Source: Reclinomonas americana ATCC 50394 (taxonomy: Eukaryota). Taken from it: DNA of 35,022 nt. Below the pieces are notes generated by a model that was not told the DNA's origin, searched no databases, and saw nothing but the letters and a program-made list of their open reading frames with translations. A program made the position numbers and the translations under genes. The DNA is taken from NCBI GenBank assembly GCA_048213135.1, contig PS015209.1, positions 1-35,022 on the forward strand, in the 5' to 3' direction. Numbering within the stretch: the first letter of the stretch is position 1; each line of letters starts with the position of its first letter. Below, piece by piece: positions 964 through 29,879 of the stretch.

Positions 964-3611
964 ATGCGATTAAAAGCGCGACTGTCGCTCATTCTCGCGC
1001 TGCATTTCTTTGCGCTTGTGTGCATCCTGCCCGTTCTCATCACACATGCCAAAGTGCAAGGTGCGGCGACTGTTTTTCGCCAATGTGCGCGCATATTGTT
1101 TTTTGACTCACTCTTCTTCTCTCGCTCGCTCGCTCTTGTGCACAGGCGATGTTACATGGTTTCCTGGAACGTTGCGCACATCTCACCCTCACTGTGTGTG
1201 TTTCGCCCACGCGCTCACTTCTCGCGTTTTTTGTGTTTTGTAAGTGAGGGCGTGAAAGAGTATGCACATGAGCTGGCCTACTCGGGCTCTCTGGTGGTTC
1301 TCGGCAACTCGGCGGGCGGCTTTGCCTCGATGAATCCCGACGACTTTTCGCTGGGAAAACTCGGCCCCTTTGTCGTCGATCATCAAATTCGTGAGTCCGT
1401 TCGCGCAGAGACAGAGACGGTGTTGCTCACCTCCATTGTGTGTGCGTGTGTGAGCAGCTGGGACGTATTCTAGAGTATCGGCCTTCAATCAGACCGCGGC
1501 ATTTGCGTACAACAACACGGTGTGGACGATGGATGCGATGAATGGCGAGTGGAACACGCGATCGTCGGTGGTGCAGACCGATTGGATTAGTTGCGCTTCT
1601 CCCTCTCTCTCTCTCTGGTGTTGCATATCGCAGCGTGGATGCTGATGTGTACCCGAGGAACAGTTGATCGCGTGTTCATCTTCCGCGCGGTTGACGATCC
1701 ACCACTGGCCATGAACATGTTTATCGCCGGCGTGCAGCAGAGCACGGTGATGGTGTACACGTCGATGAGTCCGCAGTCGCCGTGGGTCCTCAATCAGACG
1801 CTGACGGTGCCCGATGCCGGTGCGCTGCTGTCTCTCGTTGTTGAGATGATGAGTTCTCCTTGTGCGCAAGCTAAAGGTGGGCACCGCAGGACCGTCGTTT
1901 GGCACGGCCATGGCCGGCTATCACTCGTATGTGGCGATCTCGGAGCCGTCGAACGGAGCCGGCCTGGTGCACATGTTCAACCAGCAGCCAGGCAAGCACA
2001 CTGCTCTTGGTGCGCAGACTGTTGGCCCTGCTCACTGCTCTCCCCCGTGCAGGAACGCGTGTATGGACGTACTTTTCCACGATTGATGGGTTGGAGGATG
2101 TGCGTGCCGGCAGCCAGTTTGGCTCGTCGCTTTCGTGGAACAAGTGGTTCTTTATTGTGGGCTCGCGGTATGCGGGTACCCTGCGGCAAGGTGCCGCTGT
2201 GTTGTATCTACCCACGCAACCAGTTTCCCTGGTTTGTGTTTGCGTGCTGCTTCTCAGCATCCGCCTCTCGTACCTCACGCTCTCTGTGCCCCCCGACAGG
2301 GTCTCAATCTCACTCGCGGATGGGTCTTTGATGGCGAACCGAGTTCTGGATTCGGTGCCTCGCTCGGCATGGTGCGCGAGTCAAGCTCGGGCGATTCACA
2401 CGCGCACACACTGACACTTGATTTTCTTCTTCTTCTTCTTCTTCTTCTGCGCAGGATGCCAATGACAACTCTGACGGCACAGCCGACATTAACGTCGTGG
2501 TTGGTGCACCAGCGATTGGTCAGGCGTTCTTGTACAAGTGCATCACCACACAATATGTGAATGCTACGGTTGCGTAAACAATTCCTCTCTCCTTTCCTCG
2601 AGCTGTGCTTTTGTTCACCGCGTGCCTCGGCGCGCAGTGCGAGCGCGCTGATGTGCTGATTGGTCGATACACGAGCGACGGCGTTGGTCTCAGTGTGGCG
2701 TTTCCACCGCAGCGCATCCTCCTTGGTGCTCCATGTTGCGTTTTTTTCATTCTCATTTCTTTGCACGAGCTCCGTGTACGATTGCTGAAACGGGACGCTT
2801 TGCGCAGTTGGCCCGAATCGCACCAAGGACTCGCAGGGATTGCTGTACTCGTTTGGCTACTGCTACGATCGGTACGCACGAGTCAAGCAATCCGAGATTC
2901 TGGTGTGCCGTCGCTGCCAACCCGACTGTGGAGAGACTGGTGGATTCGCCGAGGGCTGCTGCGGCAGCTTTTTCACATACCGCATCACCTACTTCTTGTT
3001 CTTGGTGTCGCTGGTCGGCTTGTGCATGCTCACGTGTTGCTGCAAGACTCTTCCGCGAGCGGTTTTCGAGGGCTGCCTACGCGGCTGTGCCTATTTGTTG
3101 TGTCGGTGCGTGTACATCTTATGCGGCGCACGTGCATGGCATGTCACGCGCTCACTCTGTTCTCCTACGCACGAGCAGACGCGCAGTTGTACAGTACCGA
3201 AACACGGGCGAGCTACCGGCCGGACCGTGGCGTCGTCTCCAAATGTTCCTGCTCGGCCGACGGGATCCACCCATTTTCCTCGACGACTCGTTTGCGCTGG
3301 CCCCTGTACGCCGCCAGGTTGAAGTGATGGACTCGCAAGTCCAAAGTTCAACTCACCTGGTCGACGTGGACAAGGCCGACCGAGCCTACCTCATGTGCCG
3401 CCAGTGCCACCAACGCGAGATCAACGTGTTGCTCGTCCCCTGTGGTCACGAGGTCCAGTCCGTGTGGTTGTTGTTTGTCTGTTCACCATGCGGTGATGCT
3501 GACTCTATACTCTTGGCGCAGGCGTACTGTCTCGAGTGTGCCGAGGACTTCTTGAGGTGCCCACTGTGCCAGCAGCCTGTCGAAAGATGGGTTCGTATCT
3601 ATCCCATCTAA
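964..3611 (+). CDS. Predicted type I membrane protein (~586 aa, 13 exons): signal peptide, FG-GAP/integrin-alpha-like repeats, Cys-rich stalk, TM helix, C-terminal C3HC4 RING
   Basis: Exons 964-1060, 1146-1170, 1245-1390, 1458-1589, 1664-1819, 1890-1991, 2053-2222, 2300-2371, 2455-2556, 2638-2734, 2808-3105, 3179-3452, 3522-3611 sum to 1761 nt in one open frame. Hydrophobic N-terminus MRLKARLSLILALHFFALVCILPVLITHA. Repeats FGTAMA..VAISEP, FGSSLS..FIVGSR, FGASLG..VVVGAP, VGLSVA..ILLGAP. TM ITYFLFLVSLVGLCMLTCCC. RING CRQC..VPCGH..CLEC..CPLC. Confidence 0.8.
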
Positions 3612-3729: not shown

Positions 3730-6700
3730 CTATTTCATCCACCGTATGCCAGCCACCGCCATGCCGACCTCGGCCACGTCGCACACGGTGCACACGTGAC
3801 CCTGATACGACGGCGAGAAGGAGGCGAAGCAGTACGGGCACTTGATCGAGGCGTTGCCTGCATGCATGGCGATAAGCAGACTGCCGAATAACAAACAAAA
3901 AGACACATGGACTGATGCAACGCACCACGGAAGATTGGAGTTAACGTGCCGGCGCACACGACAAACGGATTGCGGTCGTCGTAGTTGATGCCAGTCTCCT
4001 GCACTGTCACCTTGGCCGCCGTGCTGGCCGCCATCTCAATGACCTTGCGCGCCTGTGCTGTCACCTCCGGCTTGGGGTTGAGATCCACCAGACGCTTGGC
4101 GAATGACGAAGCCACCGGCAAGTTGTTCTGCTTGTACGCAATCGTCATGCCAGAACTGCGCGAAGACGATGATCAGCAGCAGTAGGGACGACTTCGATCC
4201 CACCAAGGCATACGCACCGGAGTGCCAGCACGAGATGTGTTGGTGCCAGCTGGCAGTGCGTAAAGTAGGCGGCCAGCTCGAGACCGCGAACCGGGTTCGA
4301 CGTGGTCTCCTTGCGTGTGGCCTCCAGGTTCAACGCAATCACGTACTCGCGCGACTCGTTCACCAACTCACGCAGCTGTCGCCAGGCACGGTGAGCACAA
4401 GAACCGAAACATCTCCCTTCTCCTAATCGCTCGTCACGCACCTTGCCCGTCTCCTCGCGACTCTCCACGCAGATGCAGAGGCAGCCGTGCAACACCGACT
4501 TGAACAGCAACTGAGCCTCGCCGAAGCGACCGGCAGTGAATGCTGCATGACCTGCTGCTTGCCGCTCGGCGAGCGCAGCAACGGACAGTGGCGACGCCGG
4601 CTGGCTGCGCGACTGGTCCGCGATCGTGTCGGCGTTGCGCTGCGCAGAATAGAAAGAGACGGGTGAGCGCGTGTGCGTGAACACGAAAGCACACAGTGGA
4701 AATGCGCACCGCCAACGTGTGCATGAGTGGTGGCAAGCCAGGGAAGGTGGAGCCGACAGCGTGTGCCGACATGTACAGCGACATGAACAACTGGCGGAGT
4801 GGTGCAAAGTTGACCACACCGGCAGTGCGATTGAGAATCTGCGTGCGCGGAAGCGAGTGAGTAAGGATGACTCTTTCTCTCTCTCTCCAGTTCATGATTA
4901 CCTGCATGGCCGACTGGAAGGAGCCTGCAGCAATGTGATCGGCAGCCACCTGCGACCCGTCGCACCAGCGCTGCTCGACGGCTGGTCCAGGGGGCGGTGG
5001 GATGGAAAAGTCCNNNNNNNNNNNNNNNNNNNNNNNNNNNNNNNNNNNNNNNNNNNNNNNNNNNNNNNNNNNNNNNNNNNNNNNNNNNNNNNNNNNNNNN
5101 NNNNNNNNNNNNNNNNNNNNNNNNNNNNNNNNNNNNNNNNNNNNNNNNNNNNNNNNNNNNNNNNNNNNNNNNNNNNNNNNNNNNNNNNNNNNNNNNNNNN
5201 NNNNNNNNNNNNNNNNNNNNNNNNNNNNNNNNNNNNNNNNNNNNNNNNNNNNNNNNNNNNNNNNNNNNNNNNNNNNNNNNNNNNNNNNNNNNNNNNNNNN
5301 NNNNNNNNNNNNNNNNNNNNNNNNNNNNNNNNNNNNNNNNNNNNNNNNNNNNNNNNNNNNNNNNNNNNNNNNNNNNNNNNNNNNNNNNNNNNNNNNNNNN
5401 NNNNNNNNNNNNNNNNNNNNNNNNNNNNNNNNNNNNNNNNNNNNNNNNNNNNNNNNNNNNNNNNNNNNNNNNNNNNNNNNNNNNNNNNNNNNNNNNNNNN
5501 NNNNNNNNNNNNNNNNNNNNNNNNNNNNNNNNNNNNNNTTGCCGCCAGCAGCCGACGACGAGCCACCCGGCATTGTCAACTTGCTGCCACCGGCCGGTGC
5601 ACCAACCAAATCGCCCAAATCCAACTCACCCCAGCCGTCCTCGCCGTCCTCGTCGCCACCGCCAATGCCACTGCCACCCGCCGCCGGCAGTCCGGGCACA
5701 ACTGCATGTAACCGGGCTTTCAATACACCTGTTGTCGCCAGCAAGTAGACAGGGACTGAGCAAGACGCAACAGCCCGGCTCATCAAAGCGCAGATCGGTG
5801 TCCCAGCCGCCAGCATCGGCGGCCACCACTGGAATCTCCGACTCGGGAATGTCACGCAGACGACCATCCTCCGTGAACACATTTTCGAAGAAGCTCTTGG
5901 TGATCTGTGCGTCGACCACCACGTCAGCGACTGTCGCTTGATCACTGGTCAACAAAACGCAACGTTCAAGAACGGCCAGTCTTGCTCCTCGGCAGCGTAA
6001 ATCGGCGTCGGAGGGAACAGCAGCTCCGCATCGGGTGCCGGCTCCGGCAGACCCAAGTCAATCTCTCCCGCCTCCTCCTCTGCATCGCGTTGTCATCAGC
6101 AACAAGCCTTCCTGAGAAGATTCACACGCAGCAGTCGCACGCACCGCTCACGCCCAGTTGCGCCAGCTTTTCCCGCTTGATACGATCGCGCAGCGCCTGT
6201 GCAATTTCGTCCAGTCCGTGCGTGGCCGCCGTCAGGTACGCCAGCCGCACTACAGCAAGCAATGTGAGCACCGGATGGAAGAGAGACACGTGCGCGGTGC
6301 ACAGGGTAATCGCACCTTGTCCGACACGCAGCAGCACCTTGATGCGCTCCTCGGCGTCGCCAAGGTACAACGCAGTGTGGAACTGTGCCATGCGGTCATC
6401 ACGACCCTCGGCCAGCGCACTGAGCTGGCGCAACTTCTCCACGTTGCCAGTCATCATGTACAGGAATGACAGGCGATCGTAGTCCTCATTGCGGTGATAC
6501 GCAAGTGCCATGGACTGGTGAGAGGTGAACGATGAGACGAAGGTAGATGAGAGAGAGAGAGAGAGAGAGAGCGCGCGTGTGACGGAAACGCACCCGCAGG
6601 TTGCCGTGCTGCAACGCCTCCTCGGCCAGCTTCTCGTACGACTCCTTGTCCTTCAGGGTCTTGGCGAGTTCTGCGCGACAAGGACTCTCGTGGTGAGACC

Positions 6701-9224
6701 GATTCTCTTTGTCACACTTCGTACCACGAAGAAAGAACAGACCAGTGGCTCGCTGCAAGTCGCCGCACTCGAGCGCCAGGTTGAAGCGCGTCTTGGGATC
6801 TTGTGCGAAATTCATGGCAATCTGCATTCGCTAGCGGTGAGCGCTCACGACGATGAGAACAAGAGCGTGCACGGCAGACGTGACCTCGGGGAAGCCCTTC
6901 TTCTGCAAGAAGCCAATGATCGACTGGCCGTGCAGCTTGGCGTGGCTGAGAATGCGGAAGATCTCGTCGTTGCGTCGCTCGAGGAGAGCGCGCTTGAAGT
7001 TGTACTCGGTGGTGTCGACGTAGGTGAGGCCGACCTGACCGTTGCGGTCGAGGTAGTGCACGGCCTTGTCGCGCACACGCACAACGTAGACCGCCTGCTT
7101 CAGAGTCTGCACAATGCCATTGTCGCTGATGACACACAATTCGTCAGTTAACTCTGGCGACCAGTGCCAACAAGCGACAAGCGCCGTCACTCACCCCGAC
7201 GGCAACAGGTACTTGAGGTGGTTCAGCGTAGAGTAGATGAAGACACCAGTGTCGTCAAACACGCCGCTCTTGATGCGCACGGCCTCGTAGACGGTGCACA
7301 GGAACTCCAGCTTCTGGGTGGCCAGAGTCACATCTGTATGGAACATAAGCACGAGGACGCAGAAGAGATCATCTGTCCGCAAGCAGACACGCAACTCTGC
7401 TTGCTCATCAGAGCGACCACTTGATAATCCGACGACCACGCCACCATGCGCAGACCGGCGGCGACAATGCTGCCGAGAATGCGACCCTGTATGATGCACG
7501 ACGACGATTGAGTTCTTCTCTCATCCCTGCCCTCCGTCGATCACAATGACACGACGCAACATTGGCCTCCATCAGCACAACGCGGTCCTCGAGACGCAGC
7601 AGCATCTGGCGAGGCGGGCCCGGGAAAATGGCCTCCACCACCGAGTTGGCCACCGGCACAATCTTGCTCTCCGGGTTGTCGAGGTAGCGCAGGTTGACGC
7701 GCTTTTCACGATCGAGCACCACAATGCGATTGCGGCCGGAGAAGAAGGCTTGCTTGCCGGCGGCATACTGCAAATCACACTGCATGAGCAAAAGGGGGCG
7801 CGAGTGACGGGCAGAGGAGTAGGGGAGAACGCACTCTGACTTCCGAGGAGCNNNNNNNNNNNNNNNNNNNNTGCAACGAGCCGTCCGAGGGCGTGGCGCC
7901 CTTTTGGCGCAGCGCTACGAGGATAACACAAAGAAGCGGTGAACAACAACAACAACAGCGACGATGGAGAAGGCAGAGAGACGCAACCGCCAATGTCCCA
8001 CACGCGAATGGTCTGGTCCAGCGACGCCGAGACCAGCAGGTATTCCTTCGGGTGGAAGAACGCCGACATGACGTAGTGATTGTGGCCCGTCAGCACCGCC
8101 ACCGACGTGCTACGCGATTCTCCTCGTTAAGAAAGCACAAGGCGGGGGAATGCAGGAAGAGGATGAACACACCGATTCTGGAAATTCCAGATGCGCACAG
8201 TCTGATCGTCGGATGCCGACACGATCCACGGCTGCTCCCAGTGGAACTGCACCGTGCGCACAAAGTCCAGATGGCCACGCAGTGTGAACAGGCACTTGCG
8301 CTGCTTGTAGTTCCACACTGCACCGCAAACAATCTCGATCAGAGACAACTCTCTCCACAGCCAGCGCATTCCCTTGTGATCTCTCACCTTTCACCAGCCA
8401 GTCATCGCCACCACTGCAGAACTGCGGCAGCGAGTGGTGGAAATCAACACCACGCACGGGTCCTGCACGACGCGTGTGAGTGTTATGAGTGTGCAGGCGA
8501 CATGGCGCGAACTCGACACGTGTGTGAAAAAGTGCGTGCACCGTGTCACAGATGGCCGAGTGCAGAACAAGGCATGGATAAGCACACATGAAAGAGAGAC
8601 AGGCTCATTCTCATCCACCGCGTGGAGAGAGCGCGCGCGCCATGTCCACCCTCTTCTTCTTCCTCCTTCCTCCTCTCTCGTCTTCATCTCTTTGTCTATG
8701 GTGGTGCGTGTGAGCTCTCTCACCATCATGATCCTCGAACTTGTCGATGAGCGTGAGCATCTGGTAGTCTGCAGAGACGGGTGTGAGCGCACACACAAGA
8801 TAAAAGAAACATGATACTTCTCCCTCAGCGACTCACCCCACAGCTGGATGCAACTGTGTGCGCAAACATAGGCGACGTGAGCGAAGAGGAGGATGTGCAC
8901 CGAGCGTGACACACACGCAGACAAGAGAGAAGGAGGGAAGGAGAGAAGGAGTGCGCGCGTGCAATGACCAACAACAACGAGGCACTCACCCTGTGTGCAG
9001 CGACACGAGGATCCATGGTCGATCGGGGTGGAAGCTGTGTATACGCGTCAGCCACGTGAGCAAGCAGCACGCCAGTGAGATGAGTGCGGTGATGAACGAA
9101 TTTGCTCTCCCATCAACCCAGGTGACATGTGTGTGCATTTTGTGTGCGCGCGTGTGTGCGCGTGTGTGCATACGTGCCTCAGGCCCTTGACGCGGGCGCT
9201 CTTGGTTTCGAACTTGAGAAGCAT
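3730..9224 (-). CDS. COPA: Coatomer subunit alpha (alpha-COP), multi-exon, interrupted by two assembly gaps
   Basis: Starts [33 protein letters not shown]40 segments [31 protein letters not shown] and [13 protein letters not shown]. Core motifs [20 protein letters not shown] and [12 protein letters not shown]-terminus [18 protein letters not shown], stop at 3730. Confidence 0.97.
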
Positions 9225-28550: not shown

Positions 28551-29879
28551 TTACTCGATAGCCAGGGTCGTCTTGACAATCATGCCCGCCACAATGTAGG
28601 GGTCGCTGTTGGAGGCCGGGCGGCGATCCTCAAAGTAGCCGCGCTGGTCGCGGTGAGTGAAGCGCGGGATGCGGATCGAGGCACCGCGGTTGGCGACGCC
28701 ATAGCTGAACTTGTTGAACGGCGCAGTCTCGTGCTTGCCCGTCAGGCGCTTCTCGTTGCCCTCGCCGTAGCCCTTCATGTGCTCCTCGTGCTTCTCACCG
28801 AGGCGCTCGACGGCCTGGATGATCTCGGCGTAGCCGCCCTCCTCGCGCATCTTCTTGGTCGAGTAGTTGGTGTGGCAGCCGGCACCGTTCCAGTCGCCGT
28901 GCTCCACCGGCTTGGGGTTGAACGAGACCTCGACAAACATGTCCTCGGCCACGCGCTGCAGCAGGTAGCGGGCCATCCACAAGTGGTCGCCAATCTCAAT
29001 GCCGTGGCAAATGCCGACCTGGAACTCCCACTGGCCGGGCATGACCTCGGCATTGGCGCCGGCAATCTTCACGCCAGCAAACAGGCAGGCGCGGTAGTGT
29101 GCCTCGACCACGTCGCGGCCAATGGCGTTGAGCGCGCCCACACCGCAGTAGTACGGACCCTGGGGGCGCGGGTAGCCAAACTCGGGGAAGCCGAGCGGGC
29201 GGCCAGTCATGGGGTCAATGAGCGTGTACTCCTGCTCAATGCCAAACCATGGCTCGTCGCCAGCAGCGCGCTCCATGACGCGGGCGCACTCGGCGCGGTG
29301 GTTGTTGGGCAGCGCCGAGCCGTCGGGGTAGTACGTGTCGCACATGACGAGGATGTTGTTGCCGCGGCGGAAGGGATCGCGGAAAATCGCGCGCGGCTTC
29401 ATGTACACCTCCGAATCGTGTCCGGGGGCCTGGTTGGTCGACGAGCCGTCGTAGTTCCACAGCGGCAGGTCCTCGGGGCCATTGACGGGGCCATGGACCG
29501 TCATCGTCTTGCCACGAATGTCGTTCTCAAAGCCAGCGCCCAGCCAAATGTACTCGGCAGTGATGACGCCCTCCGGCAGAGGGAGCTCCATGTAGTGCGC
29601 CTTGACCGCCTGTATTGGAGGNNNNNNNNNNNNNNNNNNNNCAAGGAAAATGGTGAGTAAATTGCACGTCTTTTTGGACAGACACACAGCAACTCCGGAT
29701 TGAGCACGGAAGCTTCCTTCTTCCTCAAACAAGAGCACGAAAGGAAAAAAACACGAGGGAGCGGCATGACTGATGCACGCGACAAATACAACAGCGCAGA
29801 CAGAGAGAAAAAAAGAGACACACAAAAACGATTTTGCACTCACCCGCGGGTCAATGCTCTGGGGCCTCAGGTGGTGCAT
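28551..29879 (-). CDS. GLUL: Glutamine synthetase type II, 2 coding exons
   Basis: [12 protein letters not shown]|intron|[106 protein letters not shown]. Confidence 0.97.

Follow-up and report, generated by a model that had tools for sequence, protein, structure and literature searches.

A candidate single-chain receptor-type RING E3 ligase with FG-GAP_2-like ectodomain repeats in Reclinomonas americana

Membrane-spanning RING E3 ligases allow extracellular events to control how receptors are ubiquitinated inside the cell. Passages of a paper on these enzymes describe their number, structures and mechanisms as still poorly known (PMC12458338). We have analyzed a gene at positions 964-3611 of a DNA stretch of 35,022 nucleotides from Reclinomonas americana ATCC 50394 (GenBank assembly GCA_048213135.1, contig PS015209.1, positions 1 to 35,022 of the forward strand), which is called the window in the following. 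An earlier interpretation of this interval, termed here the sequence-only reading, had proposed a spliced gene for an E3 ligase with an integrin-alpha-like ectodomain, a transmembrane (TM) helix and a C-terminal RING domain. In our analysis 964-3611 most likely represents a single gene in a eukaryotic genome that is compact and dense in introns. Its probable product is a type I membrane protein with about 600 amino acids, which would act as a single-chain receptor-type RING E3, a function which we infer from the order and the kinship of its parts.

Exon structure of the gene

The window has a guanine plus cytosine (GC) content of about 56% and contains numerous gaps filled with N, none of which falls inside 964-3611. 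Within this interval no single frame is open throughout. The coding-like segments switch among the three forward frames, and they are separated by short stretches that are rich in T and poor in A. That the architecture is not visible in any single open reading frame (ORF) had been stated before. Starting from the ATG at 964, 13 exons and 12 introns on the plus strand give a coding sequence of 1800 nucleotides that ends with the stop codon at 3609-3611 and encodes 599 amino acids. The number of 13 exons joined in one frame was reproduced, but our chain does not return the exact length of 586 amino acids given before. The exon chain was chosen after listing all frame-preserving pairs of donors and acceptors at each junction. 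Because in-frame alternative junctions exist, the length of the protein depends on the model; these alternatives shift individual junctions by about -10 to +6 amino acids. The 12 introns are between 44 and 85 nucleotides long; eleven begin with GT and one with GC, and all of them end with AG.

Exon 1 (964-1060) starts with the ATG, encodes the signal peptide (about amino acids 1-29; 964-1050) and is followed by the donor GTGCGG. Exon 2 (1146-1170), a micro-exon of 25 nucleotides, is the least certain part of the model. It is the sole option with a GTTGCG donor, a donor that occurs twice more in the gene, and the alternative would be one intron of 177-207 nucleotides, an outlier in length. Exons 3-5 (1245-1390, 1458-1589 and 1634-1819) encode the N-terminal part of the ectodomain (amino acids 41-195), and all three score best in the frame of the model. 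At the junction of exons 6 and 7 either a GC donor at 1992 (intron of 61 nucleotides) or a GT donor at 2010 (intron of 43 nucleotides, six additional amino acids) can be used. The 3' end of the gene is formed by exon 12 (3179-3452), which encodes the cytosolic linker and the first half of the RING (first Cys at 3396; C-x2-C ... C-x-H), and by exon 13 (3522-3611), which encodes the second half (last Cys at 3567-3569) and a tail of 13 amino acids ending with VRIYPI. The RING is divided by intron 12 (3453-3521), which is 69 nucleotides long, in frame and free of stop codons.

Different kinds of evidence bear on this model. In codon usage, scored with a table of 709 codons from conserved neighbouring genes, the model frame is the best one in 12 of the 13 exons, the 25-nucleotide exon 2 being the exception. 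The GC content at codon positions 1, 2 and 3 of the model is 0.58, 0.47 and 0.68. The donors GTGCGx, GTGAGT and GTTGCG and the acceptors ending in GCAG match the introns of the neighbouring PP2A gene, where conserved motifs set the exon ends; its two introns, 70 and 68 nucleotides long, have the donors GTGCGA and GTGAGT and acceptors of the same ...GCAG type. The residues on both sides of intron 12 align to adjacent residues in the RING domains of cIAP2, cIAP1 and BIRC7 (for example to chain residues 46 and 47). Since the two RING halves abut in these alignments, junction 12/13 is confirmed by homology. Retention of intron 12 would add 23 residues between the RING His and the fourth Cys and would not truncate the protein.

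Protein layout, RING domain and ectodomain repeats

The spliced protein consists, in this order, of a signal peptide, an ectodomain of about 400 amino acids, a stalk with six Cys, a TM helix, a linker of 93 amino acids and a C-terminal C3HC4 RING. Amino acids 1-29 contain a basic n-region and a hydrophobic core and form a predicted signal peptide, with cleavage after T-H-A as read by eye. According to Kyte-Doolittle plots the protein has only two hydrophobic peaks, one in this region (window starts at amino acids 3-15) and one at the TM helix (window starts at 434-444). The ectodomain extends from amino acid 30 to about 437 and holds all five N-x-S/T sequons of the protein. Exon 11 (2808-3105) encodes the end of the fourth repeat described below, the six-Cys stalk (amino acids 398-431; 2861-2962), the TM helix (amino acids 439-458; 2984-3043) with its terminal CCC (3035-3043), the subsequent KTLPR (3044-3058) and the first part of the cytosolic tail. 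All this lies in one uninterrupted frame. Therefore, the link between outside and inside requires no splicing event. Splicing is needed only to attach the RING to the tail, across an intron of 73 nucleotides with a GTGCGT donor. A Pfam scan of exon 11 found no family. The linker behind the TM helix contains two lysines, and the juxtamembrane CCC is a possible palmitoylation site. Signal peptide, Cys-rich stalk, the TM helix with its CCC and KTLPR motifs and the RING with the terminal VRIYPI had all been named in the sequence-only reading and were recovered here.

The terminal RING is, as judged from its sequence, a member of the zf-C3HC4_3 family (PF13920) and of the IAP type. The Pfam model matches with 29.6 bits (gathering cut-off 27 bits) and an E value of 6.2e-7, although the query (3180-3608) was read through the in-frame intron 12 and hence carried its 23 amino acids as an insert. 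A regular expression run on the spliced model finds the eight zinc ligands at amino acids 552-586 with the spacing C-x2-C ... C-x-H-x3-C-x2-C ... C-x2-C. The best matches in the PDB are cIAP2 (E value 2.2e-4), cIAP1, BIRC7, XIAP and MYLIP. The C-terminal tail of 13 amino acids aligns with the tail of BIRC7 and places a Tyr opposite a Phe in the penultimate region of BIRC7. This C-terminal aromatic residue helps the dimeric RING of IAP proteins to activate the E2~ubiquitin conjugate.

The C-terminal half of the ectodomain contains four FG..GAP-like repeats, in agreement with the earlier count. They begin with FG or VG at amino acids 199, 252, 307 and 363 and are thus spaced by 53-56 amino acids. 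The first repeat lies in exon 6 (1890-1991; core 1898-1972) and the second in exon 7 (2053-2231; core 2118-2207). Repeat 3 is distributed over exon 8 (2300-2371), which holds its first half with the FG at 2351, and exon 9 (2455-2556), which holds the second half with NDNSDGTAD (2461-2487) two residues ahead of VVVGAP (2494-2511), positioned as reported before. Repeat 4 is encoded by exon 10 (2638-2734), with VG at 2683 and LLGAP ending at 2733, and is completed in exon 11. A common order is found in all four: FG-x-S/A-hydrophobic, then a hydrophobic run followed by G/S-A/E-P, and finally G-x-A-hydrophobic-hydrophobic-Y/H. Repeat 3 shows the canonical order FG...D/N-x-N-x-D-G-x-x-D...VGAP, which resembles the Ca2+ loop of integrins, and the full succession of FG, loop and GAP appears only once exons 8 and 9 are joined. 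A regular expression for the repeat pattern that matches the spliced model matched none of 2000 shuffled sequences; it was written after the repeats had been seen and is descriptive only.

As a reference for the repeats we used a bacterial protein (P0005) in which FG-GAP_2 scores 555.7 bits over 11 stretches. In a comparison with hhalign, the profile of the four repeats aligned in register with the repeat profile of P0005 (probability 78.8, P value 1.7e-5, score 27.0). None of 200 column-shuffled control profiles reached this score, the highest control score being 15.0. With BLASTP, amino acids 190-395 of the model were aligned with P0005, again in register, with a score that 2 of 300 shuffles attained. 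In the Atlas, 28 of the 30 matches of exon 7 belong to FG-GAP_2 clusters (best 0.94). These comparisons support a resemblance of the four repeats to FG-GAP_2, which the repeats appear to match more closely than they do the integrin FG-GAP model. Neither exons 3-5 nor exon 9 alone matched a Pfam family. The size of the ectodomain (about 385 amino acids at about 55 per blade) and the period of the repeats suggest that it probably folds into a seven-bladed beta-propeller. The reference protein P0005 itself combines its 11 FG-GAP_2 repeats with cadherin-like/Big_9 and fn3 domains and a C-terminal Apea-like HEPN domain (104.2 bits), an unusual pairing of surface repeats with HEPN.

Known systems, relatives and interpretation

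Single-chain type I TM RING E3s are a class that has been described before. Passages of PMC12458338 name ZNRF3, RNF43 and GRAIL as its members, give the ubiquitination and clearance of neighbouring surface receptors as the role of such membrane E3s, and set beside them another design, MEGF8-MGRN1, in which the RING sits on a recruited partner. The conceptual likeness to RNF43 and ZNRF3 that had been pointed out before is therefore justified. Like the protein presented here, ZNRF3, RNF43 and GRAIL (RNF128) are single chains in which a signal peptide and a binding ectodomain are combined with one TM helix and a RING in the cytosol. Their ectodomain is a protease-associated (PA) domain, and their RING-H2 lies away from the extreme C-terminus. 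In the present protein, repeats of the FG-GAP_2 type take the place of the PA domain, and the RING is an IAP-type C3HC4 at the C-terminus; by sequence the proteins are unrelated. Pfam found no PA domain on any piece of the ectodomain, and the RING is C3HC4 and not RING-H2. Thus, the protein shares the layout of the PA-TM-RING E3s (RNF43, ZNRF3, RNF128, RMR) but is not one of them.

The complex of MEGF8 or Attractin with MGRN1 (MMM complex) is similar in that a type I protein with a large, repeat-rich ectodomain is linked to a RING E3 in the cytosol. The RING of MGRN1 presumably belongs to zf-C3HC4_3, and hence to the same Pfam family as the RING described here. In the MEGF8/Attractin complex, a cytosolic MASRPF motif recruits the RING protein, which is a second chain (PMC8254101). 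In the present protein, however, the RING is fused in cis, and a MASRPF motif was not seen in the tail when inspected by eye. A further difference lies outside the membrane, where MEGF8 and Attractin carry ectodomains of the EGF, Kelch and CUB types and not FG-GAP. The RING proteins cIAP1/2, XIAP, BIRC7, MYLIP and MUL1 share the ligand spacing and the C-terminal position of the RING, and BIRC7 in addition the short aromatic-containing tail. The IAPs are soluble proteins with BIR domains and MUL1 spans the mitochondrial outer membrane twice. None of these proteins has a signal peptide or an ectodomain, while the present protein has both. By its layout the protein belongs to the single-chain design, but the type of its RING is closer to that of MGRN1 and the IAPs.

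The comparison with integrin alpha chains, which gave the sequence-only reading its name for the ectodomain, stands in part. Integrin alpha, ITFG1/TIP and plant DEX1 are type I membrane proteins with FG...GAP repeats about 55 amino acids apart, and the D/N-x-N-x-D-G-x-x-D loop is found in one repeat at the position of the integrin Ca2+ site. At the level of the FG-GAP repeats the likeness therefore holds. Beyond this level it does not: no more than four repeats can be recognised, FG-GAP_2 scores below the Pfam threshold, and the thigh and calf legs (Integrin_alpha2) are missing, with a stalk of about 40 amino acids separating the last repeat from the TM helix. The conserved membrane-proximal motif of integrin alpha is GFFKR, whereas here KTLPR comes after the TM helix, and the tail has 141 amino acids and contains the RING. 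Since leg domains and a GFFKR-type motif are absent and the tail bears a RING and is thus of enzymatic type, the protein is not an integrin alpha.

Relatives were searched with several methods. In a word-index search exon 11 was compared with longer proteins and yielded 27 candidates, none at an E value of 0.01 or below. The tail with the RING yielded 352 candidates, none at 0.001 or below, and a profile of six ectodomain pieces yielded 5418, with a single protein at an E value of 0.038. This protein is P0005, which as a bacterial FG-GAP_2/cadherin-like protein was set aside as an orthologue and served as the reference. A full HMMER search with 3180-3608 against 1.84 billion representatives gave four matches at an E value of 0.001 or below and none at 1e-10 or below. 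All four were likewise rejected as orthologues: P0001 is a repetitive protein in which a stretch of 24 amino acids was matched many times, P0002 and P0003 are repeat proteins, and P0004 is an unrelated RING protein of 210 amino acids. A search of metagenomes with exon 11 gave 103 pattern matches and one locus (L001), whose shared stretch of 20 amino acids includes the search pattern itself and is attributed to chance. Within the window no paralogue of the gene was found. In the titles, abstracts and some passages of the literature searched, no membrane protein with FG-GAP repeats and a RING is described. The combination of an FG-GAP-type ectodomain with an IAP-type RING appears to be undescribed in this literature, and uncharacterised database entries with the same layout may exist. 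The claim that the architecture belongs to no described family is thus contradicted neither by the literature nor by the sequence searches.

The analysis establishes the parts of the protein, their order, the family of the RING and the FG-GAP_2 likeness of the repeats. From these we infer that the ectodomain is a propeller, where in the membranes the protein sits, that the RING dimerises, what its substrates are and that it is an active E3. The most likely mechanism would then be as follows. A glycosylated domain of about 400 amino acids would be exposed outside the cell or in a lumen, its C-terminal half being formed by the four FG-GAP_2-type repeats, one of them with a Ca2+ loop. This domain would bind either a ligand or the ectodomain of an adjacent membrane protein. 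On the cytosolic side the RING would recruit E2~ubiquitin, probably as a dimer that uses the C-terminal aromatic tail in the manner of the IAPs, and would ubiquitinate cytosolic lysines of the bound partner or of its own chain. The ubiquitinated proteins would then be internalised by endocytosis and degraded. In its most specific form, the protein would be a non-animal single-chain receptor E3 that evolved independently. Here, a Ca2+-binding FG-GAP propeller, the module by which integrins bind their ligands, would be wired through the TM helix to an IAP-type RING that depends on dimerisation, and clustering of the ectodomain by ligand or contact would switch on the ubiquitination of surface partners. 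This would make it a cis-fused counterpart of the animal MEGF8/Attractin-MGRN1 system. We put this version forward tentatively, as one possible form of the broader proposal.

If the gene is real, it would add a class of ectodomain to the design of the membrane-spanning RING E3s, an FG-GAP repeat module with a Ca2+ loop, and this ectodomain would be coupled to a terminal RING of the IAP type instead of a RING-H2. It would also suggest that domain shuffling produced the layout of receptor-type E3s on more than one occasion, and it would offer a compact one-chain model for the control of a dimeric RING by an ectodomain. Should transcripts reveal two genes in 964-3611, or the ectodomain have a fold other than a propeller, no more than an ordinary RING protein beside an ordinary repeat protein would be left.

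Several results weigh against a receptor-type E3 with FG-GAP repeats. The junctions other than 12/13 were placed by sequence signals alone, and codon usage does not support the frame of exon 2. The Pfam scans of the ectodomain covered exon-sized, unspliced pieces. FG-GAP_2 matched exon 7 with 15 bits at an E value of 0.028, below the cut-off of 23 bits, and the other eight of the nine pieces had no FG-GAP match. Of the two families that the sequence-only reading had proposed for a check, the RING family hence lies above its Pfam cut-off and FG-GAP below. A hidden Markov model (HMM) made from eight P0005 repeats, which is too narrow a model, scores the protein with only 2.7 bits. When the four repeats were compared among each other by leaving one out in turn, 246, 148, 101 and 76 of 1000 shuffles reached the score, which is non-significant. 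The N-terminal 160 or so amino acids show no significant likeness to the four repeats, since 45 of 343 scoring shuffles (500 made) reach the real score. In the PDB, searched by sequence, the six-piece ectodomain profile found only YjhT, a Kelch-type propeller, at an E value of 0.72; exon 7 and exon 9 had no match there, and exon 9 alone no usable match in the Atlas. An orthologue was found neither in the word-index nor in the HMMER and metagenome searches, and conservation thus lends no support to the fusion. However, the queries for relatives were exon-sized, which limited their reach, and the absence of relatives is therefore weak evidence.

Some of these results would be expected if the likeness to FG-GAP was superficial, the ectodomain belonging to another class of propellers or to a lineage-specific fold and the Ca2+-loop-like motif being a coincidence. 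The sub-threshold Pfam score, the non-significant tests for internal repeats, the PDB search with nothing beyond the weak Kelch-type match and the lack of an Atlas match for exon 9 would all fit. Against such an explanation speak the hhalign result with its 200 lower-scoring controls, the FG-GAP_2 clusters among the Atlas matches of exon 7, the regular period of 53-56 amino acids and the canonical order of FG, loop and VGAP in repeat 3, and we regard it as quite unlikely. Even less should be expected of an arrangement with two products. In that case retention of intron 11 would give a propeller-TM protein ending soon after the membrane, and 3179-3611 would either encode a small RING protein of its own or be a remnant that no longer codes for protein. 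Exons 11 and 12 are only 73 nucleotides apart and are joined by a donor (GTGCGT) and an acceptor (...GAGCAG) of the local style, exon 12 scores best in the frame of the model, and the RING has no start codon near the beginning of its own exon, as fits a downstream exon of the same gene. Moreover, the PP2A and COPA genes box in 964-3611, so that no space is left for a second promoter or transcription unit. These points outweigh, in our view, that frame 902 is open past the donor at 3105 and runs to a stop at 3320-3322 and that in-frame ATGs are present downstream of 3179; two products are very unlikely.

A stronger competitor, which we nevertheless consider rather doubtful, retains the single-chain E3 but places it in an endomembrane compartment (endoplasmic reticulum, Golgi, endosome or vacuole). 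There it would serve in sorting or quality control, and its luminal repeats would recognise cargo or glycans instead of forming a surface receptor. Many TM RING E3s are endomembrane proteins, and endosomes are the site of action of RMR/RNF13-type PA-TM-RING proteins. No feature of the sequence fixes the plasma membrane as the destination. The scarcity of lysines in the cytosolic tail, which holds two, is often seen in E3s that escape their own degradation and is a weak argument in the same direction. Against an endomembrane enzyme stand the tail, in which no retention or sorting motif was recognised by eye, and the repeats, since the best-known FG-GAP repeats with Ca2+ loops occur in adhesion proteins outside the cell.

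Neighbouring genes and other features of the window

The gene is flanked by two conserved genes on the minus strand. About 500 nucleotides upstream and in divergent orientation lie exons of a PP2A-type Ser/Thr phosphatase catalytic subunit (54-464) with the motif GDIHGQ; the Metallophos model scores 20.6 bits, slightly below its cut-off for this fragment. On the other side the multi-exon gene of coatomer alpha, COPA, extends from 3735 to about 9000. It was recognised by COPI_C at 3735-4172 (76.4 bits), the COPA/B TPR region at 6122-6652 and WD40 repeats at 7572-8126, and is broken by N gaps at 5014-5538 and 7852-7871. The 3' end of COPA converges on that of the RING gene, with a spacer of about 120 nucleotides past the stop codon.

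Further genes were noticed along the window. A leucine-rich-repeat protein is encoded on the minus strand at 11903-12460 (LRR_9/LRR_8, about 34 bits) behind a poly-Q tract, and a fragment of an RmlD-like dTDP-4-dehydrorhamnose reductase on the plus strand at 13121-13396 (91.3 bits) is interrupted by the N gap at 13399-13746. On the minus strand at 28551-29621, one long exon encodes a type II glutamine synthetase (Gln-synt_C 65.7 bits, Gln-synt_N 31.3 bits), the 5' end of which is missing owing to the N gap at 29622-29641. PHD-finger-like patterns of Cys and His occur in ORFs near 23.8 kb and 24.7 kb, where a Pfam scan at rough coordinates found no family. Between 16000 and 27400, CT/GA and CA/GT microsatellites and low-complexity sequence produce very long spurious ORFs on both strands, with translations such as SLSLSL, HTHTHT and PLPFP. 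In 1-kb windows the GC skew reaches 0.3-0.54 at 16-17 kb, 22-24 kb and 26-27 kb.

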